From Terriglobia bacterium (GTDB taxonomy: Bacteria; Acidobacteriota; Terriglobia; 20CM-2-55-15): a DNA stretch of 64,000 bases. Under the pieces are notes generated by a model. It saw nothing but the letters and a program-made list of their open reading frames with translations. It was not told the origin of the DNA and ran no database searches. Both the position numbers and the translations under genes were made by a program. Each line of letters starts with the position of its first letter. Positions within the stretch are counted from its first letter, which is position 1. The DNA is taken from NCBI GenBank assembly GCA_965216035.1, contig CBDCFM010000004.1:2780-66779 (forward strand), in the 5' to 3' direction. Below, one piece after another: positions 3,941 to 41,428 of this stretch.

Positions 3941-4132
3941 CTAGTGGTCCCCGCCAGAGATAACGTTACTATCTCCGAAGGAGGTTGCGAGCGGACTGAT
4001 GAGTGAGATCCACCGCGTGGTATGTGTGACTTTCGACCGTTTTGAGCGTTCGTGAGGGCAACCTCCATCGGCCCTACGGGTTCGGGCGGAACTCCGAAAT
4101 CTAGTAACGCTAACTCTGGCGGGGACCACTAG
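3941..4132. mobile_element. MITE family A, short copy (IS630-type ends)
   Basis: Terminal inverted repeats CTAGTGGTCCCCGCCAGAG...CTCTGGCGGGGACCACTAG; near-identical inverted copy at 36025-36298. Confidence 0.85.
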
Positions 4133-10541: not shown

Positions 10542-11167
10542 TGGGTATCGATCCGACTCGAAAAGGAATCTTGAGCTTGCCGCGGGGTCTAATCCTGGTG
10601 TGTTTTCTTGCCCTGGCATGGGCACCCGCCATGTATGGCGACGTCATTGACCGTTTGATGGCAGTGGTGGACGGGGACGTCATCACGCTCGGTGACGTCA
10701 AAAAGGAACGGGCGGTCCGACGATTCTTTGGTGACGAGGCACCGTCGGACGATCAAGCCATGCTCGATGAAGTGATCGAGGATTTCTTGATCCGCAACCA
10801 GGTCGATCAAATCCCGGGCATTCAGATCACATCGGAAGAAGTCGAAGCTTACAGCTTGCAATTGGGCGATCCCGGGGACCTGTCGGCGGAAGTCGTCGCT
10901 GTTGCCGTTCGCCAGCGAATGAAACTGGCTCGATACGTGGACCTGCGGTTTCGCCAATTCATCCGGGTCTCGGATCCTGAAATAGAGGAGTACTACAGGG
11001 ACGTGTTTCTCCCGAAGACGCAATCGAGCGGGTTGGCCAGTGTTCCGACCCTCGACTCGGTTCGAGAAGCGGTCCGCACCAACGTCATTGAAGAAAAAGT
11101 AATCCGGGAGATCCGGCTGTGGGTGAATTCACTGATCCGGAGAAGTGATATTGAAGTTGTTGAGTAA
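10541..11167 (+). CDS. SurA N-terminal-domain-like periplasmic chaperone
   Basis: Signal peptide then VIDRLMAVVDGDVIT; coupled between tamA-like and tamB-like genes. Confidence 0.7.
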   Translation: MGIDPTRKGILSLPRGLILVCFLALAWAPAMYGDVIDRLMAVVDGDVITLGDVKKERAVRRFFGDEAPSDDQAMLDEVIEDFLIRNQVDQIPGIQITSEEVEAYSLQLGDPGDLSAEVVAVAVRQRMKLARYVDLRFRQFIRVSDPEIEEYYRDVFLPKTQSSGLASVPTLDSVREAVRTNVIEEKVIREIRLWVNSLIRRSDIEVVE

Positions 11168-15101: not shown

Positions 15102-16382
15102 TTACAGATAGACCAACCCGAGGGTTTGGAAATGCTTGTAATAGCTGACCCCGGCGGGAGGACGAAAGGGTCGCTGGCTCCGCCGCCGCAAATGACGCGT
15201 CAGACGGTCGCGTACGAAACGGTTGATCTGGCGCTTTGCAACACGGGGATAGCCATAGCTGAAGTACTGCGCCCAACCGTTGAGGTGCCGATTCAAATCC
15301 GCAACCAGGGCCGGTATGGGCATCGAGCCTCGCCATGGGCCAGTCATGTCGCGCAACCTCTGACGTTCCCGAGCCAGCGCCTTCTTTGAGGGGGCCACAT
15401 TCAGATAGCGTCGTGGCTGCCCGTGCAGGTCCCGATCGTACCGAAACGTGTATCCCAGAAAGTCGAAGCTCTGTCCCGACTCCATCAGTCGCACGACCCG
15501 TGTCTTGGCTCGATTCAGTTCGAGCCCCATCCGTTGTTCCAACGTCTCTTCAATCCAATCCTTCAACCGGGGACTCTGGTACCGGGCCAGTATCACCAGA
15601 TCATCGGCGTACCGCACCAGTTCGGCTCCGGCCCATTGGGCCGGACCCCCTCGGGCATGGAAGAAGTGATCAAACCAGTGCAGGTAGATATTCGCTAACA
15701 ATGGTGAGATCACCCCGCCCTGCGGAGTCCCGGTCCGGGTCCGCCTAGGCGGTCCCCCGTCCCGGGTGTCGGTCACTGGCGCGTTGAGCCACATCCGAAT
15801 CAACTTGAGCACCGCACTATCGGTCACCCGCATCCGAATCGCCTTGAACAGCTTGTCCCGCGGAATGGAATCAAAGTACCCTTTCAGATCCGCGTCATAC
15901 ACGTCCCGCTTCCTGCCGTGGAGTCCTTGCCGCACTTGCTCCAATGCATCATGGGCCTTTCGCCCAGGCCGAAATCCATACGAACTGTCCAGGAAATCGG
16001 CTTCGAAGATCGGCTCCATTATCAGCAGCAGCGCCGCCTGCACCACACGGTCACGAACCGTCGGTATCCCCAATGGCCGCTCCCGACCATCGGGTTTCGG
16101 GATATACACCCGTTGGACCGCCTCAGGCTGGTACTTCTTCGAGCGCAGCACTTCGGCCAGTTCGGCCAACCAGCGCTCCGGGCCGCCCTCCGCATCCACA
16201 ATCTGGTGGATCGTGACGCCATCGACCCCGGCCGAGCCTCGATTGGCCCGCACCTGCTCCCAACCTGCTTCCAACACGTCCTTGCGGTAGATCCGGTCGT
16301 ACAAACTATAAAACCGGAACTTGGGTTCCCGCTTCGCTTTCAGATATAGCCGCAGCCTCAGGTCAGCGAGTCTCGGACCCAT
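15102..16382 (-). CDS. ltrA: group II intron reverse transcriptase/maturase, no HNH endonuclease domain
   Basis: RPLGIPTVRDR, SYGFRPGR, GTPQGGVISPLLANIYL, YADD, FDFLG; native start probably lay beyond the IS630 (~17611), 16382 is the first remaining ATG. Confidence 0.93.
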   Translation of the reverse strand: MGPRLADLRLRLYLKAKREPKFRFYSLYDRIYRKDVLEAGWEQVRANRGSAGVDGVTIHQIVDAEGGPERWLAELAEVLRSKKYQPEAVQRVYIPKPDGRERPLGIPTVRDRVVQAALLLIMEPIFEADFLDSSYGFRPGRKAHDALEQVRQGLHGRKRDVYDADLKGYFDSIPRDKLFKAIRMRVTDSAVLKLIRMWLNAPVTDTRDGGPPRRTRTGTPQGGVISPLLANIYLHWFDHFFHARGGPAQWAGAELVRYADDLVILARYQSPRLKDWIEETLEQRMGLELNRAKTRVVRLMESGQSFDFLGYTFRYDRDLHGQPRRYLNVAPSKKALARERQRLRDMTGPWRGSMPIPALVADLNRHLNGWAQYFSYGYPRVAKRQINRFVRDRLTRHLRRRSQRPFRPPAGVSYYKHFQTLGLVYL

Positions 16383-16440
16383 CCGTCGCCGCTCGCACCA
16401 TCCGTGCTCCGCTGCTTCGGCTCGCTCTCGCTCCGTGCTA

Positions 16441-17593
16441 GTGTAGTCCGCCAGAATTAATGAGATGTAAGTGCTTGTCCAACGTCTGATATAGATATGA
16501 GGAAAGCACCGAGGGTTGATCTTGATGTTCAGGTACGAAAGGAACTGGAACGACTGAGGCGAAGCCGTAGTACATCGGTACGGTTGGCGGAACGATCCCA
16601 AATTGTGTTGCTGGCGGCTGAGAGTCTGAGGAACGAGGAGATTGCAGCACGGCTGAAGATGACGCTTCAGAAGGTTGGCCGATGGCGTGCTCGTTTCGCC
16701 AAACATGGATTGGGAGGCATTGAGAAGGACGCGCCGCGAAGCGGCCGGATTCCCTCCATCAGCGCACGGAAGCGGGCCCGGATTGTAAAGAAGACGATTG
16801 AAGAGAAGCCCCCCAAACGCCACGCATTGGAGCCGTACCTCGATGGCAAAGGCGACCGGAGTCAGTGATTCGACGGTCGGGAGAATATGGCGGGCCCATG
16901 GCCTGAAGCCACACCTGTCAGGAACCTTCAAGCTGTCCAACGACAAACAATTTGCCGAGAAGCTGGAGGATGTGGTCGGTCTGTATCTGAACCCACCGGA
17001 AAACGCCATCGTCTTGTCCTGTGATGAGAAGAGCCAGATGCAGGCACTGGACCGCACCCAGCCCGGGTTACCGCTGAAGAAGGGGCGGTGTGGCACCTTG
17101 ACCCACGACTACAAACGCAACGGAACCACCACGATGTTCGCCGCGCTCAATACCCTGGACGGCTCTGTGATCGGGACTTGCATGCCGAAGCATCGGCATC
17201 AGGAATGGATTCGGTTTCTCAATCAGATCAAACGCTCCGTGCCTAAAGACAAGCAGATCCACATAATCTGTGACAACTATGCGACCCACAAGCATCAGAA
17301 AGTTGTCGACTGGCACAAGCGCAACCCGCGCTTTCATGTGCACTTCACACCGACCAGTGCGTCGTGGCTGAATATGGTCGAACGTTTCTTCCGGGATCTT
17401 TCAGAGCAACGGCTTCGGCGCGGAGTTTTCCATTCGGTTCCAGAGTTAATCCAGGCCGTTGAGGACTATGTCGACGGTCACAATCAGAGCCCTAAGCCGT
17501 TCATCTGGACCGCGCAGGCTTCCGATATTCTTGAGAAAGTCCGACGCGCTCGAAAGAAGCTGGTTAAAGTGCACTCTGTTTGACGGGGACCAC
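16441..17593 (+). mobile_element. IS630 family element, copy 1 (transposase 16497-17583 frameshifted)
   Basis: TA duplication at 16439-40 and 17594-95; ends GTGTAGTCCG.../...GGGGACCAC; [22 protein letters not shown]; frame break near 16810. Confidence 0.92.
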
Positions 17594-18647: not shown

Positions 18648-20834
18648 CTATTGTCCGATCTGGGTGGCGGTGTTTATTGGTTTCGTGGAGCGCATGACGT
18701 CGTAGACTCCGTCAAGTCCACGGATGGCGGCGATAACCCTCTCCAGATGTTTCATGTCGGGTATTTCGACAGTCATGTCGATCACGCCTCGTTCCTCATC
18801 AGTCCTGGCGGACACGTCCAGTATATTGGAGCGGTTGTTGGAGATCGCCGCTGAAATCCCGGCAAGAATGCCGTGACGGTCGGCCGTGATGATCGTCAGA
18901 TGAACGGCATATGCCTCGGCGGCGACGGCGCGCCCCTCCCACTGAACATCGATGCGCCGATCCGCTTCATACATCAGGTTCTGCACATTCGGACATTTCT
19001 TGGCGTGGACGGCGACCCCCTTGCCCCGGGTCACGTAGCCGATGATTTCCTCACCCCGGATCGGGTTGCAGCATTTCGCTCGATAAACGAGCAGGTCGTC
19101 CATGCCCTTGACCTTGATCTTGACGTCTTCCCCGAAACCGAACACCTTCTTGACGGCGGCGGTGAACCTCGAATCCGGTGCGGCGGGTTCGCCCAACGCT
19201 TCCGGCCGAAGCTTGGCCAGAAGCTGTCGAGCCGAAACCTTGCCAAAACCGATCGCGGACCAGAGGTCATCGACTCGCGCACATCCGTAATCCGGCGCAA
19301 CTTTCGCCAGCCGGTCATGTTGAGTCAGTTCCTTTACACTGAGTTTGTACTTGCGGGCTTCTTTCTCGAGAAGTTTTCTTCCCAACTCGATGGACTTGGT
19401 CCGTTCCTGAACTGTCAGCCAGTGACGAATCTTGTTTCTTGCGCGCGACGTCTTGACGAAATTGAGCCAGTCGCGGCTGGGATGATGCTCGGGCTGAGTC
19501 ACAATCTCGACAATGTCGCCGTTGGAAAGCTTGGTCTTGAGCGGCGACAGACGCCCGTTGATCTTGGCGCCCACACAAGTGTGGCCGACCTCGGTGTGAA
19601 TCGAGTAGGCGAAATCGACGGAAGTGGCGTCGCTCGGGAGGGTGATAACCTGGCCCTTGGGTGTAAAAGTGTAAGTCTCTTCCGGATAGAGGTCGACCTT
19701 AAGCGTACTCAGAAAGTCCGTGGGGTCTTTCATCTCCTGCTGCCATTCGACCAGATGCCGGAGCCAGGAAACGCGCTGGTCTTCACGATTATCCGCCACC
19801 AGTTTTCCGTCCTTGTACTTCCAGTGGGCGGCAATCCCGTCTTCGGCCACACGGTGCATTTCGGCGGTTCGAATCTGGACTTCGAAGGCCTGACCACCGG
19901 CAATGACGGATGTATGCAGGGACTGGTACATGTTGGGGCGCGGTATCGCGATGAAATCCTTGATTCGGCCGGGCACCGGACGCCAGGTGTTGTGAATCAC
20001 CCCCAGCGCGGCGTAGCAGCTCTTGATGTCGTCGGTCACGATACGGATGGCCAGCAGGTCGAAGACCTGATCGATGGTGATTCTCTGACGGCGAAGCTTC
20101 TGGTCGATCGAATAGATCCGCTTGATTCTTGCCTCCGTGGTACACCGTATCCCCTGCTCTTCCATGTTGATGGCAATGATCCTCCGAACCTCCTCCAGAA
20201 ATTGATCGTTGACCTTCCTCTTGGCGTCGAGCGAGTCCTTGATCTCTTTGTACGACTTCGGGTCCAGAAAACTGAACGCCAGGTCCTCGAGCTCCCCGCG
20301 AATCTTTCCCATACCAAGCCGGTGGGCAAGAGGCGCATAAATCTCGAGCGTTTCCCGGGCGATTGCCTCCCGGCGTTCTGCACGCAGGTGTCGAAGCGTC
20401 CTCATGTTGTGCAAACGGTCCGCGAGCTTGACGACGATGACCCGGATGTCGTCACTCATCGCCAAGAGCATCTTTCGAAAATTCTCAGCCTGTTTCTGTT
20501 CTGTAGAGGTGAAATAGATCTGGCTGATCTTGGTGAGGGCGTCAACGATGTGGGCGATCTCAGACCCGAACATTTCCTCGAGCTTCTCGAGCGAAATCAT
20601 CGTGTCTTCAACAATGTCATGAAGCAGGCCGATGCTGACCGTTACCGCATCCATCTTGATCTCGGCCAGGACATTGGCAACCTCAAGCGGATGGGTCAGG
20701 TAGGGCTCTCCCGATGCCCGGACCTGGCCTTTGTGCTCTTTTGCCGAGAACAGGTAGGCGCGGCGCACGACCTCCAGATCGTCTTCAGGGTGATACTTCT
20801 GGATCTTGTCCAGTATCTGTTGTAGGCGGATCAT
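18648..20834 (-). CDS. relA: bifunctional (p)ppGpp synthetase/hydrolase
   Basis: HD motif (LLHDIVEDT), KLADRLHNMRT, YQSLHT, EVQIRT, TGS, CC and ACT domains. Confidence 0.96.
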   Translation of the reverse strand: MIRLQQILDKIQKYHPEDDLEVVRRAYLFSAKEHKGQVRASGEPYLTHPLEVANVLAEIKMDAVTVSIGLLHDIVEDTMISLEKLEEMFGSEIAHIVDALTKISQIYFTSTEQKQAENFRKMLLAMSDDIRVIVVKLADRLHNMRTLRHLRAERREAIARETLEIYAPLAHRLGMGKIRGELEDLAFSFLDPKSYKEIKDSLDAKRKVNDQFLEEVRRIIAINMEEQGIRCTTEARIKRIYSIDQKLRRQRITIDQVFDLLAIRIVTDDIKSCYAALGVIHNTWRPVPGRIKDFIAIPRPNMYQSLHTSVIAGGQAFEVQIRTAEMHRVAEDGIAAHWKYKDGKLVADNREDQRVSWLRHLVEWQQEMKDPTDFLSTLKVDLYPEETYTFTPKGQVITLPSDATSVDFAYSIHTEVGHTCVGAKINGRLSPLKTKLSNGDIVEIVTQPEHHPSRDWLNFVKTSRARNKIRHWLTVQERTKSIELGRKLLEKEARKYKLSVKELTQHDRLAKVAPDYGCARVDDLWSAIGFGKVSARQLLAKLRPEALGEPAAPDSRFTAAVKKVFGFGEDVKIKVKGMDDLLVYRAKCCNPIRGEEIIGYVTRGKGVAVHAKKCPNVQNLMYEADRRIDVQWEGRAVAAEAYAVHLTIITADRHGILAGISAAISNNRSNILDVSARTDEERGVIDMTVEIPDMKHLERVIAAIRGLDGVYDVMRSTKPINTATQIGQ

Positions 20835-29551: not shown

Positions 29552-30518
29552 GGATGCACCGCACCCGATGTGTTTCGTCGATTGTGTCGAGCGGGATGTC
29601 CGAGACGGTGCACTCGTCGGTTCTCTCCGGGCAGCGCGACGCAAACGAACAGCCTCGAGGCAGGCGAAGCAGGCTCGGAACCACGCCATCGATAACTTCC
29701 AGCCGCTCCTTCTTGCGCAAGCTGGATCCGAGCCTCGGGATCGAACGCAAAAGCCCCCGGGTGTAGGGGTGCCGGGCTTCCTTAAACACCTTTTCGGCCG
29801 GCCCGATTTCGACGATCTTTCCGGCGTACATAACGGCGACCGTTTCGGCCACCTCGGCGATCACACCCAGGTCGTGTGAAATCAGCATCAGCGAAAGGTT
29901 GTATTTCTCTTGAAGGCTGTTGAGCAAGTCGAGAATCTGGGCCTGGATCGTGACATCCAGAGCCGTGGTCGGTTCGTCCGCAATGAGCAGAGTCGGGTTG
30001 CAAACCAGCGCCATGGCGATCATCACCCGCTGTCGCATCCCACCGGACAACTGGTGGGGATAGTCTTTCGAACGGCGGGACGCATCCGGAATGGCCACGG
30101 CCTTCATCGCTTCGACGCCTCGGTCCCATGCGTCGGACTTCGAGACCTTTTCATGGGCCAGAACGGATTCGGCAATCTGGTAGCCGATTGTCAGGACCGG
30201 GTTCAGGGCGGTCATGGGTTCCTGAAAGATCATCGACACCCGGCTGCCGCGCCAGAGGCGCATGCTGGCTTCGTCAAGCGCCAGAAGGTTCTCGCCGTCC
30301 AGAAGGATTTCGCCGCCGACTACACGCCCTGGATGCGCGATCAACCGGGTGATGGAAAGCGCGGTAACGCTCTTTCCCGACCCGCTTTCTCCGACCAGCC
30401 CCATGGTCCCGCCACGGCGGATCGTGAACGACACGTCGTCGACGGCTTTCACGACGCCTTCGTCGGTAAAGAAATGGGTTTTGAGGTTCCGAACGTCGAG
30501 AATATTTGGGCTTTCCAT
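29544..30518 (-). CDS. oligo/dipeptide ABC transporter ATP-binding protein (OppD/DppD)
   Basis: [28 protein letters not shown]. Confidence 0.93.
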
Positions 30519-30542
30519 AGGATGTTCGGACCCGTCAGGACA

Positions 30543-32174
30543 CTATACGGTGACGGCCTCGCGATACTCGCCGAAGACCCGACGGAAGGCGTCGGAAATT
30601 TCGCCGACGGATGCATAAACCCGAACGGCGTCCATTATCGCAGGCATCAGGTTCCGATCTCCCCTTGCGGCGTTTTCGAGTGCGACCAGGGCGTCCCGGA
30701 CGGCGTCGGTATCGCGACTGCCGCGAAGGGCACCGAGGGCCTGGACCTGGGTCACTTCCAGGTCCGGGTCCACCCTGTGGATGGGAATCCGCTCTTTCTC
30801 ATCCGAATTGTACCGGTTGACACCGACGATGACCCGTTCGTCGGTTTCGATCGAACGCTGGTAGGAATAGGCGGCTTCCTGAATTTCCTTTTGCACAAAA
30901 CCGCTCTCGATGGCGGCAAGCATCCCTCCGAGCGATTCGATCTTGTCGAGGTATTCGATCGTCTCTTTCTCAATCCTGTCGGTCATCGCTTCGATGGCAA
31001 AAGAGCCGCCCAACGGATCGACCGTATGGGTCACGCCGGATTCGTGAGCGATGATCTGCTGGGTGCGAAGCGCAAGACGGGCGGCGTCTTCGCGCGGAAG
31101 TGCCAGGGCTTCGTCCTTCGAGTTCGTGTGCAGCGACTGAGCACCGCCCAGGACTGCGGCCAGTGCCTGTAGAGTCACGCGGACGATGTTGGCGTCCGGG
31201 AGCTGTGCTGTCAGCGACGATCCGGCAGTCTGGGCGTGAAACCTCAACGTCAGAGTGCGCTCGTTCTTCGCGCCCAATCCCCTGGCAATTCGGGCCCAAA
31301 GCCTGCGCGCAGCCCGAAACTTCGCGCACTCTTCCAGAAAATCACTGTGCGCGTTGAAGAAAAAGGAAAGCCTCGGTCCGAAGTCATCGATGTCCATCCC
31401 ACGGTCCAGGGCCGCCTGGACGTATGCGATCGCGTCGCCGAACGTGAAGGCAAGTTCCTGGACGGCTGTGGACCCAGCCTCACGAATGTGGTACCCGCTG
31501 ATTGAAATGGTGTTCCAGTTTGGAACTTCTCGATGGCAGTACTCGAAGACGTCCGTGATGAGCCGGATCGACGGACGCGGAGGGTAAATGTAAGTTCCGC
31601 GTGCGATGTACTCTTTCAGGATGTCGTTCTGAACGGTTCCACGAAGCGAATCCGGAGAGTGCCCCTGCTTCTCGGCCACCACGATATAGAGCGCCAGGAG
31701 GATCGGCGCGGTCGAGTTGATCGTCATCGACGTGGACACGCGATTGAGCGGTATCCCCTCGAACAAAGTCTCCATGTCGGCAAGGGTATCGATCGCGACA
31801 CCGACCTTGCCGACCTCGCCTGCCGCCAGTTCGCTGTCGGAGTCGATACCGATCTGGGTGGGGAGGTCGAACGCAACCGACAGGCCGGTTTGTCCGTGTT
31901 CGAGCAGGTATTTGAACCGCGCGTTTGTAGCAGCCGCCGAACCGAAACCGGCATACTGCCGCATGGTCCACAGCTTCCCGCGGTACATCGTTTCCCGGAT
32001 GCCCCGGGTGTACGGGTACTGACCGGGATCCCCGAGACGCTTCGCGTAGTCGGCGGCGTCACCGTCGGAAGCCTCGTAAACCCGGTCTACTTCGGCTCCG
32101 GACAAGGTTCGAAACCGCTCTTTCCGTTCTTCGCCTTTCATCGGCGTTAAGCGTAGCATATCGTCTGGCGGCAA
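30543..32174 (-). CDS. methylmalonyl-CoA mutase, catalytic subunit (split form, no B12-binding domain)
   Basis: [45 protein letters not shown]. Confidence 0.93.
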
Positions 32175-32199
32175 CAGACTCGCCTCACCGACAATTGGA

Positions 32200-32286
32200 T
32201 TTCAACGCAAAAACGCAATGACGCAAAGAGCGCAATGAAATCTATCTGTCTTTGCGAACTCGGCGCTTCTGCGTCTTTGCGTTGAG
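32200..32286. repeat. degenerate REP-like palindrome of the same family as 18084-18248
   Basis: TCAACGCAAAAACGCAATGACGCAAAG...CTGCGTCTTTGCGTTGA. Confidence 0.6.
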
Positions 32287-32298
32287 TCCTGTTCCTTC

Positions 32299-35133
32299 CT
32301 ACGATTTCCCCATGAGGACAAAGGGGGCCCAGAAATAGGGGTGCGGGAAAGACTCTTTTACGGAAAGGGCGGCCTGTTGCAACGCTTTGGGCTTGGTCAG
32401 GCCTTCGGCCAGACCTTCATAAAACCGACGCATGAGCTGAGTCGTTGAGCGATCGTTGACGCGCCAGAGGCTGACCACGAGAGATGGTGTGCCGGCGTAC
32501 AGGAACCCCCGGGTCAGACCGAGCAATTCATCGCCTTCATACAGGGCGCTCATTCCGGTTTCGCACGCGCTCAGCGTGGTCAGTTCCGCTCCGAGCTTGA
32601 GGTTGAAGATGTCCACCAGATTGAGCCAGCTGTCGCCGAGAAGGATAGAGGAAAACATCGGGTTGTCGCTTCGGAACACCCCATGAGCGGCAATGTGGAG
32701 CTTGCCGGCGGTCGGTCCATACTTGCGCAGCAAATCTGCCGTGGCCTCCGCTCCCACAAACACCCGCGCATCGGGTAACAGTTCTCGCAGGACGTCGGCT
32801 TCTTCCAGTATCGCTGGCGTGGACTCGTCGGCCACGGCCAGAACCAGATCCCTTTCCATCTCGGGCAGTTCCTTTTCGCGACATATTTTCAGGACCGATG
32901 CGCTGGCGCTGTAAACCACGTCGTGTCGATCCACGACGAAAGCCTCCCCGTCGAACAGGGCCTGAAACGGAACGTAATGAAGAACGTGGTGTGGAATGAT
33001 GACCAGGGAGTGTCCTTTGATCTTGTCTTCGAGCGGGGCCATCAGCAGGCGGTAGAGCTCTCCAAGATGGTGCGTCGTGGCTTTGAGTAATGTACCCTGA
33101 TGTTGCTTGAGGTACTCGGCACTCAGGTGAAATTTTGAGAGCTGGAAATTGAGACCCTTGAGACACGACCGGACCGCGTCGATGGTCCCGAGGTCCCGCT
33201 CGAGGTGGAATTGGGAACCAGAGATGACGAACGCGCAAAATCGATCTTTTATCGTGTAATACTCGATCAGCACTTCATGGTCCTCGAGCATTCCCTGGAT
33301 TTCCCGGAGCGATGGCAAAGCCATCGTTTCGAGCGCCACCCAGCCGTCCTTTTGAGAACCGGCCGCGCGGAGCAGGGCCACCAATTCCTTCTCGCGCTCG
33401 TCTATCTCGGTCTGGAGCGACTTGTCCGAGGCCAGGGAACTGATGGTCGTCCCGGCCTGGGACAAGCGGCTGTAGAGCCCGTTCAGATCCTGACGGGCCT
33501 TCTGGATGTCAGCAAAACTGGAGCCCGACCCGTTCGATTGCCAAACCGAATCCAGGTTCTGCTCCAGCAGGTCGATCAGCGTTCGTGACTTTGAACGTTC
33601 GACGAAGTCGAAAGCCTCGGTCCCCAAATCGGCCCGGATCTTCAAGTCGACCACGTTTTCATAGACCTGGTACTTGTCCCGTCCAAATGACATCCGGAAC
33701 TCGTCGAGCCCGATGTTGCCGCGGAGCGATTCCATCTCTTCGATGGCCTTCATATAAAGTCGTTCGGCCTCTTCGAGCGCGCCCTCGGAGGCTTGCAGTG
33801 ATCCCATCAGGTCATAGCACTGATAGGACACCCACTTGGCGTGGTAGCCCTCCAGGCCGGCCAGAGCCCGCTCGGTCTGGCCGATCGCTTCCACCGCCCG
33901 TCCCTCGTCCCTGAGGCACTGGGCCAGCACGATACGGGCGTAGGCGCCACGCACCCCCAGCTCCTGCTCTTCAAAGGCTTCGGCGGCCGCAAGGGCCAGA
34001 TCCTCCGCATCGGCAAAACGTCGCCTTCGTTTGAGGAGTCTCGCCAGCTGCAGGTCGACTGCGGCAACCGAAACGGCATTGCCCTCGTCACTGAACAACT
34101 CGCGAGCGCGACGGAAGGTTTCCTCGGCCAACTGCGTCTCGCCACGGTCGGACTGGGCGATCGCAATGTGGGTCAAACACTGCCCTGCTTCAAGGCGATT
34201 CGATTGCTCCTCGAAGACCTTGAGCGAGTTCTCCGCCAACTCCGCAGCTTCCTGGGGAAGATTCAACTGCAGATAGATTTCGGCTCGTGCCAGGTCGCAA
34301 CGTGCCAGGCGTCGGTCGTCACCCTGCTCCAGGTACGTCGGGCGTACCTTTTCCAGGCTCCGGAGAGCCTCTGAGTAACTGCCACGTTTGAAATACAGTT
34401 CTGCGATGTTTCGGTCAAGCAGGTCGGACCACAGGACAATCCCATGCTTTTCGCAATGATCTCGAGCGGTTTCGTAACTCCTCAGCGAGTCATCGAATCG
34501 GTTAAGCTCCGTCAGCACGGAGGCACGATTGAGTTCCACCGACGCTGTGGAAAAGTAATCGTCACCGTCCGCCAGCCTTTCCAGGGCCTGATCGTATTGT
34601 TCGAGCGCTTCCGGGAACCGGTGAAGACGGATGAAAGCATTAGCCCGAGCGACATGAAATCGGGGTAGATACTCTGTGTCCCCGGCCTCTTCAAGCAGCT
34701 GTTGGGCCCACTGGGCCAATTCCAGAGCCCGCTCATACTCACTGAGGTATGTCAGATTGTAAGACTCTGCACACAGGCTTCGTCCCAGTTCCCTGTGGGC
34801 GCCCGCCTGAACGAAGAACTCGCGCGCCTTTTGGTACAAGGGCTTGGCCTCGATGGCCTTCTTCACATTCATGAAAGCATGGGCCTTACACTGATTCGCA
34901 AGCCCCCACGCCAGCGCGGTGTCGACTTCGGAGGCCAACAGGAGTATGGACTCGGTCAAGACTTCGGCCAATTCGGGATCTTTTGGAAGGAATTCTCGGA
35001 TTCGGGAAGCCAGGGCAATAACGAGCTCGTCGGAGGGTAGGAAATCGGATTCTGAAATGAACGCACGTTGGCCTTCCATATCACGAACCTGGGCCAGCAG
35101 GTCCAGAAATTCATGGACAGAGGAAGGCTTCAC
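32299..35133 (-). CDS. TPR-CHAT caspase-like protease
   Basis: About 500 aa of TPR-like helices, then a CHAT domain with LHIAAHG (His), LSACETG (Cys) and HPYFWAPF. Confidence 0.92.
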   Translation of the reverse strand: MKPSSVHEFLDLLAQVRDMEGQRAFISESDFLPSDELVIALASRIREFLPKDPELAEVLTESILLLASEVDTALAWGLANQCKAHAFMNVKKAIEAKPLYQKAREFFVQAGAHRELGRSLCAESYNLTYLSEYERALELAQWAQQLLEEAGDTEYLPRFHVARANAFIRLHRFPEALEQYDQALERLADGDDYFSTASVELNRASVLTELNRFDDSLRSYETARDHCEKHGIVLWSDLLDRNIAELYFKRGSYSEALRSLEKVRPTYLEQGDDRRLARCDLARAEIYLQLNLPQEAAELAENSLKVFEEQSNRLEAGQCLTHIAIAQSDRGETQLAEETFRRARELFSDEGNAVSVAAVDLQLARLLKRRRRFADAEDLALAAAEAFEEQELGVRGAYARIVLAQCLRDEGRAVEAIGQTERALAGLEGYHAKWVSYQCYDLMGSLQASEGALEEAERLYMKAIEEMESLRGNIGLDEFRMSFGRDKYQVYENVVDLKIRADLGTEAFDFVERSKSRTLIDLLEQNLDSVWQSNGSGSSFADIQKARQDLNGLYSRLSQAGTTISSLASDKSLQTEIDEREKELVALLRAAGSQKDGWVALETMALPSLREIQGMLEDHEVLIEYYTIKDRFCAFVISGSQFHLERDLGTIDAVRSCLKGLNFQLSKFHLSAEYLKQHQGTLLKATTHHLGELYRLLMAPLEDKIKGHSLVIIPHHVLHYVPFQALFDGEAFVVDRHDVVYSASASVLKICREKELPEMERDLVLAVADESTPAILEEADVLRELLPDARVFVGAEATADLLRKYGPTAGKLHIAAHGVFRSDNPMFSSILLGDSWLNLVDIFNLKLGAELTTLSACETGMSALYEGDELLGLTRGFLYAGTPSLVVSLWRVNDRSTTQLMRRFYEGLAEGLTKPKALQQAALSVKESFPHPYFWAPFVLMGKS

Positions 35134-35199
35134 TTTCCAGTCGCGTCCTGCTTTCCTTTCGCGCTTTCCTATCGCGCGTCGCTGTCAGGTGTCACCGCA

Positions 35200-35805
35200 T
35201 CAAGCAAACTTCGGCTGGTTACGATGCACGCAAAAGAGGGTCACCTGCCCTTCGGGCAAGTCCATCGAGAGATGGTACGTGTCCTGAGGCACCTGGTCAA
35301 AGGCAAACTCACCCACAGGGTTGGTCCGGGTCTTGTACCGGATGATTCCATGAGATTCCAACCGCACGGGTGTATCGTCAAAAAAGTCGGTCGAGTCCGA
35401 TAATACCTGCCCGGCCAATGAGATGCGATCATCGTCGGCCGACTCGATCCGAATATCAACGTCTACCTCGCCAGCCTTGAACAAAAGTTGACGCGGTATG
35501 CTGCCAACATGGCGGATACCGGCAGGTAACGGCTGTTCGAAACTGTCGAACACGAGCTTGGCAAAGATACGACCCAACTTGCCCTCGGTCGGACGAAGCA
35601 CGGGCTGAAACAACTGAACACCCCACTCAAGCAATTCGGCCGGGGGCTCGTTAACGGCATCCTCCCGAATAAATCCCAGCAACCCCTTAAACTCTTGTGC
35701 TTTTTCACCGCACCGGCTGCATGAGGAGATGTGGTCGGCCACGCCCACCACATCGGTCTTGTTATCGACAAAATTCAGGATCGTTTCAACTGTTGGATGT
35801 CGCAT
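35200..35805 (-). CDS. putative soluble zinc-binding anti-sigma factor with C-terminal beta-sandwich domain
   Basis: N-terminal HxxxCxxC (HISSCSRC); no TM segment; between ECF sigma and CHAT genes. Confidence 0.7.
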   Translation of the reverse strand: MRHPTVETILNFVDNKTDVVGVADHISSCSRCGEKAQEFKGLLGFIREDAVNEPPAELLEWGVQLFQPVLRPTEGKLGRIFAKLVFDSFEQPLPAGIRHVGSIPRQLLFKAGEVDVDIRIESADDDRISLAGQVLSDSTDFFDDTPVRLESHGIIRYKTRTNPVGEFAFDQVPQDTYHLSMDLPEGQVTLFCVHRNQPKFA

Positions 35806-36024
35806 CGTCGTCTCCGTTTAGGTCGTTCTACCGTTGCGTCCTTGCGTTCGGTTTTTTCAGCTTTCGATCAGAATTCAACCGCGTTCCCCGCGCTTACTAC
35901 AAAAGAGCCATGGAGGACGGACAAAAATACAAAAAAGTGGAACAGGCGACGTAAAAGTCCTAAGTCTTTCGCGGGCATCAATCGGGCCGACCGCTGATTG
36001 GGCGACATTCGGCCAACAACTGGC

Positions 36025-36298
36025 CTAGTGGTCCCCGCCAGAGATAGCGTTACTAGATTTCGGAGTGCAACGGTGCCGGATTTGGGGGAGCGACGAGGAA
36101 TCAATGCTTCGACATTGTGAGGAGGAGCGACGCCAAAGACGGTACCGTTCCGCCCGAACCCGTAGGGCCGATGGAGGTTGCCCCTCACGAACGCTCAAAA
36201 CCGTCGAAAGTCACACATACCACGCGGTGGATCTCACTCATCAGTCCGCTCGCAACCTCCTTCGGAGATAGTAACGTTATCTCTGGCGGGGACCACTA
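36025..36298. mobile_element. MITE family A, long copy
   Basis: Same TIRs as 3941-4132 in opposite orientation, with ~80 bp extra internal sequence. Confidence 0.85.
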
Positions 36299-36299
36299 A

Positions 36300-36869
36300 C
36301 TAGTTGATGCCCTTGCGGCGCAAAATGGTCCTCAGCTTGTCCAGACAGCGAGCGCGGGTGGGCCCGATGCTGGCTACCGGCATGTCCAGCGATTTTCCGA
36401 TGTCCTCATAGCTCGGGCCGGATTTTTCAAAATAAAGCAACTGCAGCAACCGGCGGCACCGCTCGGCCAGAGTCGATATGGCTTCTCGAACCTTCTGTTG
36501 CTGGTCCGACTGGATTCGAATCTCCTCCATGGTTTCACCCGGATCCGGGGCCGCTTCAATTTCCTCCTCGTCGGAAATGTCCCTGTATTTCAGTGACTTG
36601 ACCTGGATACAGTGACGTGTCGTCGTCGTGATCAGCCAGGCGCTGACCTTCGATTCATCCTTTAAACTCCCCAGGTGCTCAATCAGCTTGACGCAAACCG
36701 TCTGGAACACATCCGAACAGTCCGCCGGCGAGAAGCCGAACTTAACCGGGATCGAGAAGATCAGCCGGCGATACCTCATGATCAGGACTTCCCAGGCTTC
36801 TGAATCTCCACCGAGACACAGGGACACCAGCTTTGGATCGTCCATATTCTGATAACGGGAGGCTGTCAC
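36300..36869 (-). CDS. ECF RNA polymerase sigma factor
   Basis: Region 2 (AWEVLIMRY...DVFQ...WL) and region 4 (SYEDIG...MPVASIGPTRARCL); GTG start overlaps the upstream stop. Confidence 0.9.
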   Translation of the reverse strand: MTASRYQNMDDPKLVSLCLGGDSEAWEVLIMRYRRLIFSIPVKFGFSPADCSDVFQTVCVKLIEHLGSLKDESKVSAWLITTTTRHCIQVKSLKYRDISDEEEIEAAPDPGETMEEIRIQSDQQQKVREAISTLAERCRRLLQLLYFEKSGPSYEDIGKSLDMPVASIGPTRARCLDKLRTILRRKGIN

Positions 36870-37117
36870 TTCCGGATCTTCCTCGCTTTCCAGAAACTGT
36901 GGACCCCAAACCCAAGCATCGACACGGAGAACACTCCGGCGAGCCACAGACGCCACACACCAAATTCGGGAGAATCGGTATAGCGCTGGTATTCCTGAAC
37001 CACACTGGACGCACCAATGATAAAGAGGGCAAGGAAAAACGCACCCAGGACTTCGAGCACGAGCGTGTGTGCGGTCAGGAAGGCATCTTTGAATGCAGTC
37101 TTGAATCTACCGGCCAT
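36866..37117 (-). CDS. small two-TM membrane protein upstream of the sigma factor
   Basis: 83 aa with two hydrophobic segments; GTGA coupling to the sigma gene. Confidence 0.65.
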   Translation of the reverse strand: MAGRFKTAFKDAFLTAHTLVLEVLGAFFLALFIIGASSVVQEYQRYTDSPEFGVWRLWLAGVFSVSMLGFGVHSFWKARKIRK

Positions 37118-37472
37118 AAATTCAGGTTGCTCCCTATTTCTTGCGGACAGGCAAAGACTTCCCCAAGAAGCTACTTACTCCGCGTCTCGACTCTGGACCT
37201 TGGACTTGGAACTTCTGATCTGCGAGAAGACTTCCGCTCTCTCCCTCCTATTGTGCCCATGGATCCTGAATCTCCCCACAAAAGTTTCGTCCGTCCGAAC
37301 ACGAAATGCAGCCTTTTCCCGGACGCTTGACTGCAGTTCAGACAGTAGAGTGAGCCAGCAACGTTAAGCCGTCCCACCGGGGTCTGGAAGAATCCCAAAA
37401 CGACAATTTGTGGAAAGATGTAGATTTTTGGGGTTGAAGCGTCGGTATCTGTATGTTATAATTATATACGAC

Positions 37473-37856
37473 ATGCAGTCTAAGAGCAAACTGGCGCGAT
37501 TGAGCCGGTACCGGGCCGCTTTGCGGGAAGCGATCGATGAGTTAGCCGAGTTGATCGAGGTGGGCTATGAACGCAAGCCGATGGTGAAGGGGACCGTGTA
37601 CGAGTTGGCGCGCAAGTGCGGCAAGGCTGGCTGTGCGTGTACGCGGGGACAGTTGCACCGCTCGATGGTGTTGAGCTGGAGCGAGGAGGGCCGGACCCGG
37701 TTGTTGTCGATTCCTGCTGAGCGAGTGAAGGGGTTGCGAGAGAAGAGTGAACGGTATACCCAGTATCGCGCGGCCCGGGCCGAGGTCACCCGAGTACAAC
37801 GGAGGATTCTGAAGCTGCTGGATCAAATCGAGAAGCTGCGGCGGGAGAAACCCTGA
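37473..37856 (+). CDS. DUF6788-like transposase-associated small protein
   Basis: GTV...RKCGKAGCAC.RG.LH motif. Confidence 0.75.
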   Translation: MQSKSKLARLSRYRAALREAIDELAELIEVGYERKPMVKGTVYELARKCGKAGCACTRGQLHRSMVLSWSEEGRTRLLSIPAERVKGLREKSERYTQYRAARAEVTRVQRRILKLLDQIEKLRREKP

Positions 37857-37869
37857 TGGGGAGTCCGGC

Positions 37870-39525
37870 ATGACCGTGTTTGAACGCAACGACCGGTTGG
37901 TGTGCGACGCGTTCCGGGACGGGGAGTTTGACTCGATCGAGGCGGCCGGAGAGGTCTCCGAGACGGACTTCTTTCGAGCCATCGCGGGCAAGAAGATTCT
38001 CGAGAAGTTGGCGGGGAGCTACCCGACCCCATTGAAGAAGCACGACGTACCGGTGTGGGTCTATATCGCCAGCAATGTGGCGATGCGCTTCCACGGGGTG
38101 CATCAGTTTCATGCCTATCCCTATGTCGTGCGCAGCGGGGGGATGGTCCAGGCCTTCGGCCCCCAGATGGGGCATCGGGCCATCCACCCGGAGACCGGCG
38201 ATGTGACCTTGGAGTGTGGGGGGTTCAACGACAAGAACAGCTACGACCGGCAGACCCCCTGTGATCAGGACTATCTGCGGAAGATGGCGCGCAAGACCGA
38301 CGCGGATCGCCTCCAGGATTGGTTCAACCGCGACGTGGTGGGCATCTTCCGACAGCATCGGGCCTTTGATCGGGAAGGGCTGTTCATCGGGGATGCGACC
38401 TATCTGTTCCTACCTGACAACCCGGCCTATGAACACGCCTCCTTGATGCTATTCAACGAGCACAACAAGCCGGTCGACGGTCTAAAACTGACCTCCAAAC
38501 AGAAACTCCGGTGTCAGTGGCGCCGGTGCTACAAACTGGTGACCCTGATCCACACCAATCGCGCCGGGGACTTCTTCCTATGGGCCGGACTGCGAGTCAG
38601 TCAGGGTAAAGATAACGACTTGCCGATACTGTACCGCATGGTCGACGAGTTTGTGGCCTATCATGGCACGGGAATCATCAAGCGGTTGATCCTGGACCGG
38701 GGGTTTCTCGATGGCCCCTCCATTGGTCGTTGCAAACAGGATTATGGGATCGACATCCTGATTCCGGCCCGTCGCAACATGGAGATCACCCGCGACGCGA
38801 TCGATCTGGCTGACGCCCAACCCGGGACGTTCCAATCTTGGACGCCTCCTGCACCGCCGGAGAAACCGGCTCCCCTTCATCGGCCCGCCGCGATTCGCAA
38901 ACGTGAGCAGGCCCGGCAACGCACCTTAGAGAAACGCCCCGTCGAAAATCCGCCCGATCCGGCCACCACGCGCGTGGGTTCGGAACTGGCCGTGGTCCGG
39001 GACCTGGAGTCCTATTCCAACTGTCCGGTCCCGCTCCATGCGGTGATCAACCGTGAACGCTATGCCGATGGGCACACCGATCAGTGGGTGCTCTTGGATA
39101 CCAAACGCATTGCGGATCCCGCCCAAACCCGCACCGAGTATGCGCTGCGCACCGTGGTTGAAGAGCGCTACCGGCAAACCAAGTGTTTCTCCGGCCTCGC
39201 CGAGTTCTCTTCCCGCGCATTCAGTCTCGTGGTCAACCAGGTCGTCTTTGTCCTGCTCACCTACAGCCTGCTGCAGTGGTATCTGCGGCGCATCGAACGC
39301 CGGAACATGAATCGGAAGACTCGCCCCCGCATCCTCGATGTGCTCCAGCCGACCTTTACCGTCATTCTGATTTACTACCAAAACTACGTCGCCTTCCTCT
39401 CTCCGCTCGAGCATCAGGAAATGGTGCTCACACTCAGCGAAACGGCTCGCAAGAAGATTCTTGCCAAGACCCGCCGGCTCCGTCGCGCCCTGGCAAATCA
39501 ACTGCAGAATCCTCGGCCTCCATAG
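37870..39525 (+). CDS. DDE transposase (IS4-superfamily-like)
   Basis: IGDAT, ILDRGF, YALRTVVEERYRQTK (YREK-like). Confidence 0.8.
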   Translation: MTVFERNDRLVCDAFRDGEFDSIEAAGEVSETDFFRAIAGKKILEKLAGSYPTPLKKHDVPVWVYIASNVAMRFHGVHQFHAYPYVVRSGGMVQAFGPQMGHRAIHPETGDVTLECGGFNDKNSYDRQTPCDQDYLRKMARKTDADRLQDWFNRDVVGIFRQHRAFDREGLFIGDATYLFLPDNPAYEHASLMLFNEHNKPVDGLKLTSKQKLRCQWRRCYKLVTLIHTNRAGDFFLWAGLRVSQGKDNDLPILYRMVDEFVAYHGTGIIKRLILDRGFLDGPSIGRCKQDYGIDILIPARRNMEITRDAIDLADAQPGTFQSWTPPAPPEKPAPLHRPAAIRKREQARQRTLEKRPVENPPDPATTRVGSELAVVRDLESYSNCPVPLHAVINRERYADGHTDQWVLLDTKRIADPAQTRTEYALRTVVEERYRQTKCFSGLAEFSSRAFSLVVNQVVFVLLTYSLLQWYLRRIERRNMNRKTRPRILDVLQPTFTVILIYYQNYVAFLSPLEHQEMVLTLSETARKKILAKTRRLRRALANQLQNPRPP

Positions 39526-39828
39526 CGCACCGGGCCCTCGTCATGGATTTCTATCGACCCTGTTTGCCGCATCATCCGGCGGTCGTCGCACTCGTGTCGC
39601 TTCTCGAGCCACACCCATCCCTTTCACCATCCTGCAACTCCCTGTTTCCCACGCAAAACTCCTATCGCCCGAAAAACCACACGATATCGATCGGATAGCC
39701 TCAAGGAAATCGCCGCAGTGTCTGAATCGCAGACACTGATTGATTGCTATCAACTCCTTCCTCGCGTACTCTTTTCGAAAGTTTTCCCAGCACAAGGTGA
39801 CGGAACGTCAGAGAGGCAACGGGAACTC

Positions 39829-39870
39829 ATGGCCCTCCCGGCAGGTACACGTCTCGGTCCCTACGAGTCC
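39829..39870 (+). pseudogene. N-terminal relic of a Ser/Thr protein kinase
   Basis: MALPAGTRLGPYE, then similarity is lost. Confidence 0.55.
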
Positions 39871-39891
39871 GCGACCATTGGTGCTAGGTGC

Positions 39892-41428
39892 ATTACCGTG
39901 TTCGATCCTGACTGGAGTGCGCCCCGTGAACTGGAGAGTTATTTCCCTAGGATTAGTACAGGCCGATCAGCGGGTTTCATGTTCACAAGAGCGTCTTCAA
40001 ACTCATTCGGCGGAACGTAGCCGATAGAGGAGTGAAGGCGCTTGAAGTTATAGACTTCCTCGATGAAGAAGGGAAGCCTTTCGATCACGTCGTCGTAGGT
40101 TTCATAGTTCCATAAGTGAACCTCCTCGTATTTGAGAGTCTTGTAGAACGACTCGATGAATGCATTGTCGTAGGGATTGCCCTTGGCAGACATGCTGATC
40201 TGGACCCCGTGTTCACCGAGTAGGTCGACATAGTCGGCCGAAGCGTACTGGCTGCCGCGGTCTGAGTGGTGAATGCAGTCGGGACCAGGCCGCCGAGAGT
40301 CGAGAGCCATGCGAAGAGCGGCGACGCACAGGGCGCTGTCGATCCGCTTGGAGATCGCCCAACCGACGATCCTGCGAGAATACAGATCCAGAATCGCCGC
40401 CAGATAGACGAAGCTGGAGCGAATCCGGATGTAAGTGATGTCGGCGACCCACACTTCGTTGAGTGCACGAACCTTCCGATTCTTGATCAGATTCGGATAG
40501 ATCGGTAGTTGGTGTTTCGAATCGGTGGTCCGTATGAACGCACGCCAAACGATGGGTCCGAGATCGTACTTGCCCATTACGCGGCGAACACGTTTGGCGT
40601 TGACCTGGATGCCACGGCGGTCCAGTTCCCGCACGATGCGACGGTAGCCGTAACCCGGGAATTCAGCATGAATGTCGTCGATCTGGAGACGCAGTTTCTC
40701 ATCCTCGGCTTCACGCCGCTGCCGGTCCGATCGGTCCGGCTTGTAGTAGTAGCTGCTGGGCGCCAAGCCGGTCACTTGGCACGCTTTCGAAACTGATCCA
40801 AGTTGTTCGAGGTGATCGCGGACGTATTGGCGCTTTTCCGCTGTCGAACCCAAACTTGCAGTTTTTTTAGGTGTTCGATTTGCATGACCAGGTCGCCGAT
40901 CTTCGCCTTCAGCTTCTCGTTCTCGGCTTCCAATTGGCGCTCCTGTCGGGACGGCTGGTCTGCCAGAGCGCTGACGTTGCTGCGATACTGTTTTCGCCAC
41001 CGTTCGATCAGGCTTCGCGAAATTTGATACTCGCGTGCGGCCTGGGCCATCGTTACTTGCCCGGTCTCGACCTGTTCGACCATCTGGCGTTTGAATTCGG
41101 GTTCGAACTTTCGACGGATTTTTCCCATTTCGAATATCGGTGTCCTTTGCGACCGGCCCAAAAACGACTCGCGCGAGAGGCTCTCATTCCACTCGTTTCA
41201 GGCCGTCGCTCTATGCCGATAATTCTGTACTAAACTTTTGGGAAAAGTCTCCAGTCGGAAGGGCGCACTCAAGACACGATCATCGACACCGCGACGTTCG
41301 AGCAGGACCTGTCGTTCTCGGAAGGAGTGCATCACGTTCTGGTAAACGGTACGTTCGTGGTGAAGGATAGCCAGACTGTTTCAGGAGCCTATCCCGGTCG
41401 GCCCGTTGTCGGGAGGTACAAGAACTGA
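39892..41428 (+). pseudogene. C-terminal relic of a D-aminoacylase/amidohydrolase split by IS3
   Basis: ITVFDPD | TIIDTATFEQDLSFSEGVHHVLVNGTFVV...YPGRPV; rejoins across a GAC duplication. Confidence 0.7.
39913..41272 (-). mobile_element. IS3 family element (orfA 41128-40772, orfB to 39939)
   Basis: Imperfect ~45 bp TIRs T(G/T)GAGTGCGCCC..., 3 bp GAC duplication, WVADITY, HSDRGSQY, DNAFIESF; A7 slippery run at ~40862-40868. Confidence 0.92.

Follow-up and report, generated by a model that had tools for sequence, protein, structure and literature searches.

A cytoplasmic TPR-CHAT protein encoded beside an ECF sigma factor and a soluble zinc-type anti-sigma factor in Acidobacteriota: a candidate protease-linked switch

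The stretch of Terriglobia bacterium DNA analysed here (contig CBDCFM010000004.1 of assembly GCA_965216035.1; 64,000 nucleotides, hereafter the window) carries four co-oriented open reading frames (ORFs) on the minus strand at 32299-37117. They encode a small protein with two transmembrane helices (2-TM), a sigma factor of the extracytoplasmic function (ECF) type, a putative zinc-binding anti-sigma (ZAS) factor, and a large protein that joins TPR repeats to a caspase-like CHAT domain. An ORF listing confirms this four-gene locus, and family matches bear out the gene types that the original prediction, made from the letters alone, had named: a 2-TM protein coupled by GTGA to an ECF sigma factor; a soluble HxxxCxxC protein with a beta-sandwich tail; and a 944-residue TPR-CHAT protein with an intact His/Cys dyad. 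The features, from upstream to downstream on the coding strand, are these:

36866..37117, minus strand: small 2-TM protein, 83 amino acids (aa), an ORF with two hydrophobic helices
36300..36869, minus strand: ECF-type sigma factor, 189 aa, matching TIGR02937 and Sigma70_r2/r4
36026..36299, no strand assigned: insertion of ~270 bp resembling a miniature inverted-repeat transposable element (MITE), with terminal inverted repeats of ~29 nt, directly after the sigma stop codon
35905..35931, minus strand: conserved promoter-like motif TGTATTTTT-N15-CTC, a candidate ECF-type -35/-10 pair
35200..35805, minus strand: soluble anti-sigma factor of the ZAS type, 201 aa, assigned by motif, predicted fold and matches to PDB profiles
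32299..35133, minus strand: predicted cytoplasmic TPR-CHAT caspase-like protease, 944 aa, assigned by PF12770, catalytic dyad and matches to PDB profiles

The sigma ORF is open from 36956, and the GTG at 36869, which overlaps the TGA of the 2-TM gene (GTGA), yields the 189-aa protein. Residues 53-211 of the long ORF match TIGR02937 with 82.5 bits (cut-off 42.9), and the Pfam matches are Sigma70_r2 (9.7e-10) and r4 (0.001). With sigma2 and sigma4 regions only, and TIGR02937 above its cut-off, the protein is a member of the ECF (group IV) sigma-70 class; its orthologues in 23 loci are 47-98% identical. In each of 25 orthologous loci compared, the sigma gene is directly preceded by the 2-TM gene, whose stop codon overlaps or abuts the sigma start (GTGA, ATGA or TAGTG). 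The 2-TM product has no match in Pfam, NCBIfam or PADLOC; its relatives in the Atlas are clusters of acidobacterial hypothetical proteins only; and the gene was not found in 20 paralogous loci searched with hidden Markov models (HMMs) built for the purpose. To judge from gene arrangement, the 2-TM protein is translationally coupled to the sigma factor and specific to the window's subfamily. It may serve as a membrane tether or as an input.

The TPR-CHAT protein matches PF12770 over residues 690-943 (1.8e-60; 205.3 bits against a cut-off of 24) and TPR_12 at 2e-23. Every one of 60 aligned relatives retains the catalytic His817, and 59 of the 60 retain Cys857; both residues are present in all 14 complete CHAT partners at paralogous loci. 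With PF12770 above its cut-off and the catalytic His and Cys in place, the protein falls among the CHAT (clan CD) peptidases, and peptidase activity is predicted. Profiles of Csx29 and TPR-CHAT chains in the PDB match residues 706-902 at 4e-13 to 4e-9. Across orthologues the CHAT domain is ~73% identical and the TPR part ~47-51% (split high-scoring segment pairs of loci L010, L012 and L024). The anti-sigma and TPR-CHAT proteins have ORFs of their own, with 66 nt between them, and both lack hydrophobic segments.

The 201-aa protein has HxxxCxxC and an upstream His ligand in a helical domain, the signature of class I ZAS/zf-HC2 proteins. His3, His25, Cys29 and Cys32 are invariant in a 31-row alignment (A1); His25, Cys29, Cys32, Arg98, Gly132, Gln133 and Phe167 are invariant in a 131-sequence alignment whose members are 24-90% identical to the window protein. 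AlphaFold2 with the 131 rows gave a model of mean predicted local distance difference test score (pLDDT) 89.3, which is used here; the shallow 31-row alignment gave a pLDDT of only 44.9 and an unusable model. The predicted protein has two domains: four N-terminal helices in residues 6-65 (6-13, 22-28, 30-50 and 56-65, at pLDDT ~90), then a linker (66-78) and a beta-sandwich (79-194). Arg98 sits in a loop (88-104) of the sandwich. The peptide PAGIRHVGS (94-102), which the original prediction had offered as a candidate cleavage site in the linker between the domains, is misplaced there: in the model it belongs to the loop between strands 83-87 and 105-111, inside the C-terminal domain.

Profiles of PDB chains agree with this division. 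The N-terminal part matches RsiW (1.4e-6), DdvA (8rlz_A, 1.5e-4), RslA (4.4e-4), ChrR (6e-4, over residues 2-78), and also RsrA; the C-terminal part matches an Ig-like domain of NOMO2 (3.2e-7). Neither Csx30 nor securin chains appear among the matches at E up to 1. Foldseek found no PDB structure similar to the model at E<=0.001, returning generic Ig-like sandwiches and a weak ChrR row. The Pfam family CarboxypepD_reg matches the window protein weakly (17.8 bits against a cut-off of 32.3); in relatives its E-values run from 1.6e-4 to 2.2e-3, and in a same-genome paralogue reach 1.4e-5. Several family members carry PF13490. Motif, predicted fold and profile matches together support the assignment as a zinc-type anti-sigma factor. 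Because a sigma gene lies next to its gene in 25 orthologous loci and in 18 of the 20 paralogous ones, we infer that the protein binds and inhibits its cognate sigma factor.

The anti-sigma family is large. A word-indexed search gave 341 matches at E<=1e-3 among 506 candidates. When 1.84 billion cluster representatives were searched with a profile, 3752 matched at E<=1e-3, 1351 of them also at 1e-10 and 27 at 1e-30. Names seen among its clusters include Acidobacteriota, Terriglobia, Sulfopaludibacter, and Vicinamibacterales. A side branch (L070, L071 and L073-L076) consists of anti-sigma-like proteins of ~165-175 aa that have the beta-sandwich and a GxR...RQ loop and no N-terminal HxxxCxxC; their genes still lie beside sigma, CHAT, and S8 genes.

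Scanning one genome per species turned up 23 orthologous loci, all in metagenome-assembled genomes of Acidobacteriota: Terriglobia, Solibacteraceae, Candidatus Sulfopaludibacter, and one labelled Blastocatellia. Of the 22 loci with sequence beyond the anti-sigma gene, 21 show by tblastn the gene order 2-TM, sigma, anti-sigma, CHAT, at protein identities down to 37-55%. Locus L026 ends within the anti-sigma gene, and contig ends cut the CHAT gene in L009, L017, L018 and L022. A long block of synteny (methylmalonyl-CoA mutase, two OppD/F-like ATPases, tgt) is common to the orthologous loci, and so this clade, taken alone, shows vertical inheritance and not necessarily coupling.

The same genome also contains a second copy of the module on contig C20, with 58-69% protein identity:

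Locus L003 (G000:C20:911000-929000), 8773-14620, minus strand: paralogous module copy
Locus L003, 10935-12077, plus strand: insertion sequence (IS) element with an rve-integrase-type transposase, splitting the paralogous TPR-CHAT gene after about residue 271 into ORFs of 283 and 669 aa

Paralogues elsewhere carry more weight. In a profile search of 301 Acidobacteriota genomes, 66 had a match at E<=1e-8 (the unpublished genome G049 is counted only in this tally), most to the N-terminal zinc finger only; full-length matches lie at 29 places in 17 genomes. Genome G291 has 7 full-length copies, with CHAT nearby in 5 of the 6 examined, which suggests an expansion like that of a sensor family. (Genomes G050 and G221 have two high-scoring copies each.) Twenty non-orthologous loci, from 11 other Acidobacteriota genomes, were searched with the HMMs built here. 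Sigma, anti-sigma and CHAT occur together in 15 of these 20 non-syntenic loci, in three gene orders: sigma, anti-sigma, CHAT; sigma, CHAT, anti-sigma (L064); and CHAT, S8 subtilase, sigma, anti-sigma (L068 and L069). The exceptions have sigma and anti-sigma only (L063, L066 and L072), the anti-sigma gene alone (L060), or a sigma gene 7 kb away (L061). Because the trio recurs outside the syntenic block and in varied order, its linkage is not just inherited synteny. The original prediction had expected similar neighbourhoods in other bacteria, and had proposed an HMM and neighbourhood survey in which lack of conservation would count against it. The trio proves to be conserved in both sets of loci, and a similar context, ECF54, has been described in silico for Actinobacteria (see below).

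The S8 subtilases are a frequent further partner: their genes lie in 14 of the 20 paralogous loci, together with CHAT in 12 of the 20. Stand-alone S8 neighbours have signal-peptide-like N-termini. The window locus and 25 orthologous loci have no S8 gene, and none was found in the genome at E<1e-20. In clusters P0263, P0388 and P0404 the anti-sigma protein is fused to an S8 subtilase, and in P0263 and P0404 a hydrophobic, signal-peptide-like segment separates the two parts. Given this segment and the N-termini of the stand-alone enzymes, the S8 part is probably outside the cytoplasm, and the fusions were dropped as evidence of a protease acting directly on the anti-sigma factor. They suggest only that the two families are tied together, with a predicted membrane-spanning form in P0263 and P0404. 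As a separate observation, a tandem STAAIL(D/N)Q-like peptide occurs in the S8 parts of P0263 and P0404, and in three copies in the stand-alone S8 protein of L061 (6534-7910). The STAAIL(D/N) repeat was rejected as a general S8 feature: L064 and L058 have single partial matches, and the other 12 of 15 S8 genes have none.

A predicted complex connects the anti-sigma factor to the protease. Residues 85-944 of the CHAT protein (60-row alignment) and 66-201 of the anti-sigma protein (131 rows) were modelled together, as the original prediction had proposed, and docking was predicted with interface scores (ipSAE) of 0.71, 0.71 and 0.70, against 0.01 for the best of three controls. The ipSAE mark is reached by 116 of 157 solved complexes and by 2 of 215 mismatched pairs, counts that hold only roughly here because the alignments were custom-made. 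At least 70% of contacts are common to the runs, and the partner has a pLDDT of 75. The confident interface is formed on the CHAT protein by a helical hairpin (residues 659-688) that immediately precedes the Pfam CHAT domain, and by residue 819, which is two positions from His817. The anti-sigma protein contributes residues 85-108, 115-141 and 163-168. The latter segments contain or border most of the family-invariant residues of the C-terminal domain: they include the invariant Gly132 and Gln133 and the near-invariant Gln106 and Gly165, and Phe167 lies between the listed residues 166 and 168. Residues 94, 100 and 104, which flank Arg98, are also in the confident set. Recall of a known complex is possible, and less likely because the PDB contains no like complex with a detectable sequence relation. 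The prediction thus supports docking of the beta-sandwich on the hairpin beside the CHAT domain, which would bring the Arg98 loop near the catalytic His.

The promoter-like motif has, in the window, TGTATTTTT at 35931-35923 and CTC at 35907-35905. All 25 loci have a core [T/G]GTATTT just past the sigma stop codon, at a distance of 59-211 nt upstream of the anti-sigma ATG, and the fuller motif [T/G]GTATTT(T/C)(T/C/G) recurs in all 25 sigma/anti-sigma spacers, which have otherwise diverged. After ~15 nt there follows CTC in 23 of the 25, and GTC in L011 and L017. The strict pattern has three sites in the 5.77-Mb genome, namely the two anti-sigma loci and one inside an ORF on contig C16; a genome scan by position weight matrix and regular expression found no other intergenic copy. 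In 5 of 20 paralogous loci (L058, L063, L066, L068 and L069) the anti-sigma gene has [T/G]GTATTTTTT, a T-rich word resembling a -35 element, immediately upstream. We infer that the motif is the cognate ECF promoter and drives the anti-sigma-CHAT pair. The presence of the candidate promoter at only the two anti-sigma-CHAT loci suggests either that the loop is self-contained or that other targets have a less strict motif.

These elements suggest a model, to which we give a probability of about one half: a protease-gated ECF sigma switch that is wholly cytoplasmic. By homology, the N-terminal zinc domain of the 201-aa anti-sigma factor would hold the sigma factor. The beta-sandwich would dock on the CHAT hairpin (659-688), as the complex model indicates, with the Arg98 loop beside His817. 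A signal read by the variable TPR array would activate the His/Cys dyad. The anti-sigma factor would then be cut in or near the Arg98 loop, the remnant degraded, and the sigma factor freed. Finally, freed sigma factor would read TGTATTTTT-N15-CTC and re-make both anti-sigma and CHAT proteins, a negative feedback that would reset the switch.

Several observations weigh against this model. The complex score is a model's confidence; Arg98 itself is absent from the confident contacts, and the prediction does not give the anti-sigma residue that contacts CHAT residue 819. Arg98 is also invariant where no CHAT gene is nearby (L060, L061, L063, L066 and L072), and it is kept in the three anti-sigma/S8 fusion clusters. 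It therefore need not be the residue after which CHAT cuts (P1), and may serve another role. The same-genome paralogue has an intact anti-sigma gene beside its interrupted CHAT gene; and L020, which keeps the 2-TM and sigma genes, is without CHAT, with an anti-sigma gene that reads in two frames. The promoter-like motif precedes the anti-sigma-CHAT pair rather than the sigma gene. Limited help comes from metatranscriptome contigs of two studies and four runs. In each of the four runs, contigs cover the anti-sigma gene as well as pieces of CHAT; 3 of the 4 have contigs over parts of the sigma gene, and none of the 4 over the 2-TM gene, a zero that shows nothing either way. An 837-nt contig from a related strain ends at 35903, adjoining the predicted -10 element; this is a weak hint of a promoter, since DNA may be present in RNA libraries and the end of a contig does not define that of a transcript.

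The location of the motif leads to the most serious competitor, which we consider clearly less probable than the switch and still deserving of attention. Because the conserved motif, the sole promoter-like element of its kind, sits upstream of the anti-sigma-CHAT pair, CHAT could equally be an output of the sigma factor. Sigma would be released by some other input, either thiol or zinc chemistry at the ZAS domain or the 2-TM protein; it would transcribe the anti-sigma and CHAT genes; and CHAT would cut other targets, with the anti-sigma protein as a securin-like inhibitor or chaperone. Such an arrangement fits the classical redox sensitivity of ZAS factors noted in the discussion of PMC11506125, and the description of ECF54 leaves "regulation or response" open (PMC7826278 supplement). 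Docking beside the active site would suit an inhibitor as well as a substrate. It would be unusual, however, for an anti-sigma factor both to hold its sigma factor and to inhibit the output protease. The TPR array, usually a sensor part, is on the CHAT protein and varies faster than the CHAT domain, and the housekeeping neighbourhood suggests no other target. Even if the CHAT protein does act on the anti-sigma factor, catalysis might be unneeded: as an anti-anti-sigma factor or scaffold, it could simply pull the anti-sigma factor off sigma. The predicted interface, which is mostly the helical hairpin (659-688) outside the catalytic cleft, would accommodate such partner switching. That the dyad is retained by 59 of 60 relatives and by all 14 paralogous partners, in what is the most conserved part of the protein, makes it unlikely.

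Comparable doubt attaches to a role in anti-phage defence, in which a stand-alone craspase-like system for abortive infection or alarm would sense a phage protein through the TPR array. The analogy is to DdvA/DdvS, Csx29/Csx30, and CalpL/T/S, all tied to defence in the accounts cited below, and the seven full-length anti-sigma copies of G291 also fit. Nevertheless, none of the four module proteins has a PADLOC match, and a tblastn search with the anti-sigma protein against 72,556 plasmids found nothing. The module is inherited vertically, in synteny with housekeeping genes in 23 loci (methylmalonyl-CoA mutase, OppD/F-like ATPases, tgt and secDF); no defence genes adjoin it, and the IS elements near it are not shared with L004. 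Neighbourhood, PADLOC and plasmid results together argue against a mobile defence island. Finally, the genes might be neighbours through inherited synteny, without any functional coupling of CHAT to sigma and anti-sigma. The block common to all 23 orthologous loci means that gene order within the clade proves little, but recurrence of the trio, rearranged, in 15 of 20 non-syntenic loci makes this very improbable, as does a complex prediction that passes while its controls stay at 0.01. The protease-gated switch remains our preferred reading.

The genome setting is otherwise plain. Base composition of the window shows nothing unusual. The original prediction had noted that the window has no cas genes, and this extends to the whole assembly: across 5.77 Mb (96% complete) there were no matches to Cas1 (PF01867) or RAMP (PF03787), whereas the same profile searches, as a positive control, found Cas1 in 7 and RAMP in 5 of 14 control genomes. 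An Rfam scan of 30000-40000 gave nothing above chance (best 25.9 bits against a gathering score of 110), and a scan for sigma-70 and terminator consensus sequences gave nothing relevant and no excess over shuffled sequence.

Mobile sequences surround and interrupt the locus. The MITE-like insertion is absent from L004, a locus 98% identical, and by this comparison is not part of the ancestral module. It has no Rfam match, and no tRNA was found in it. A partial second copy lies at 3942-4127 of the window, and a core of ~95 nt is 73-81% alike at 13 further sites in the genome. RNA contigs stack on 36068-36261 (summed depth ~300 in X17), with loose ends at 36146 and 36181; this pile-up suggests that insertion-related sequence is abundant in RNA from elsewhere. 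Upstream of the 2-TM gene, and adjoining it, a DUF6788 protein (148 aa) and a DDE_Tnp_1 transposase (551 aa) are encoded at 37410-39525, with more transposase-like ORFs, by likeness only, beyond 39525 up to ~42846. This IS cluster stands where most orthologous loci have a divergent small gene. Among L009-L026, several loci have a conserved stretch, GGTCAATTCACAATTTAG, ~100-220 nt upstream of the 2-TM start; several (for example L011, L012, L014 and L017) have a sigma-70-like TTGATG-N17-TAAGAT nearer the 2-TM gene; and there is a conserved divergent small ORF starting MQLDDNLKQLMKELG. The window's own clade has none of the three. Farther away, a group II intron reverse transcriptase/maturase ORF (15102-17096; RVT_1 2.8e-34, GIIM 7.8e-11) lies downstream of a RelA/SpoT gene at 18648-20834.

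Protease-controlled release of alternative sigma factors is well studied for membrane anti-sigma factors; more recently it came to light in systems linked to CRISPR (Csx29/Csx30 and CalpL/T/S), and it has been proposed for DdvA. The module would be a fully cytoplasmic, CRISPR-free version, in which a caspase-like protease is paired with a classical zinc anti-sigma factor. It is widespread and present in multiple copies in Acidobacteriota, a dominant but poorly studied soil phylum. It is also a small three-protein system with a predicted docking surface, a candidate loop, defined residues (Arg98 and Cys857), and a candidate promoter. We advance only tentatively a broader proposal, that a zinc anti-sigma domain with beta-sandwich and Arg loop, together with a cytoplasmic TPR-CHAT protein, forms the heart of a large class of soluble ECF systems, protease-gated and so far unrecognised, with ECF54 included. 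The proposal is based on the 1351 anti-sigma clusters at E<1e-10 and on the multi-copy Acidobacteriota genomes. If it is true, the class would be kin, independent of CRISPR, to the signalling logic that Craspase was later found to use, and the TPR array of each paralogue would read a different cytoplasmic ligand, possibly imported peptides where an exported S8 enzyme is encoded. The module could also supply the missing regulator for the ECF54 group.

Of known arrangements, the ECF54 context is closest; the likeness is one of gene context and predicted promoter. As summarized in the PMC7826278 supplement and PMC8999054, with credit to Huang et al. 2015, ECF54 genes of Actinobacteria are always followed (+1) by a carboxypeptidase-regulatory-like protein, with a subtilase at +2 or -1, a CHAT protein at +3 or -2, and TPR repeats. 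These summaries note a "lack of putative AS factor" and describe no experiments. In the window too, the sigma gene is followed by a beta-sandwich protein at +1, with TPR and CHAT nearby. The predicted ECF54 promoter, GTATCAG / CTCC (PMC7826278 supplement), shares GTAT at -35 and CTC at -10 with the window motif, and the acidobacterial paralogues reproduce the context of sigma, anti-sigma, CHAT, and S8. There are differences: the window's subfamily is without a subtilase and adds a co-translated 2-TM protein; and in these summaries ECF54 is known only from Actinobacteria and has no anti-sigma factor, whereas the window's +1 protein is a recognisable zinc anti-sigma factor.

Other systems use related logic with different parts. 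DdvA/DdvS of Myxococcus xanthus likewise combines an ECF sigma factor, a CHCC/ZAS domain, and a TPR-CHAT module proposed to cut the anti-sigma factor. According to PMC11506125, DdvA is a fused ZAS-transmembrane-periplasmic TPR-CHAT anti-sigma factor whose CHAT domain is proposed to cleave itself, and DdvA-like proteins were found only in Myxococcota and one Comamonas. Its CHAT domain is periplasmic and dimeric and is without three active-site helices, and cleavage by RseP follows; in the window, anti-sigma and TPR-CHAT are separate and soluble, and no CBASS or CRISPR regulon is nearby. In type III-E Craspase, Csx29 cleaves Csx30, the inhibitor of CASP-sigma (Strecker et al., PMC10028731). There a cytoplasmic TPR-CHAT protein cuts a soluble sigma inhibitor, and the window CHAT aligns to Csx29 at 4e-13. 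However, the Csx29 model NF041237 scores 43.7 bits against a cut-off of 300, over the CHAT core only; the genome has no Cas7-11, RAMP or Cas1; the inhibitor is a ZAS protein with no Csx30 match; and the activator cannot be a target RNA on a Cas effector. The stand-alone Csx29/Csx30 analogue of the original prediction is CRISPR-free by these searches, and the module is not related to the type III-E arm.

CalpL/CalpT/CalpS, in the available descriptions (10.1101/2024.05.08.593097; 10.1101/2023.06.23.546230), comprises a type III CRISPR SAVED-Lon protease, an anti-sigma factor, and a sigma factor of ECF-like type. By that description it too is a three-part cytoplasmic switch, with a Lon protease triggered by cyclic oligoadenylate through the SAVED domain. 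ChrR/SigE of Rhodobacter sphaeroides (PDB 2q1z, 2z2s) provides a parallel for the inhibitor, a soluble two-domain ZAS protein with H/HxxxCxxC ligands and a beta-rich C-terminal sensor domain; that domain is a cupin rather than an Ig-like sandwich, and the ChrR gene has no neighbour coding for a dedicated CHAT protease. The accessible text of the literature on CHAT, ECF sigma factors, zinc anti-sigma factors, and ECF54 yielded no description of the acidobacterial module. The window module would work like DdvA/DdvS, Csx29/Csx30/CASP-sigma, and CalpL/T/S as these are described, and belongs to none of them. It is a protease-linked ECF sigma/anti-sigma module of the ECF54 context type, new in having no S8 subtilase and in the added 2-TM protein.

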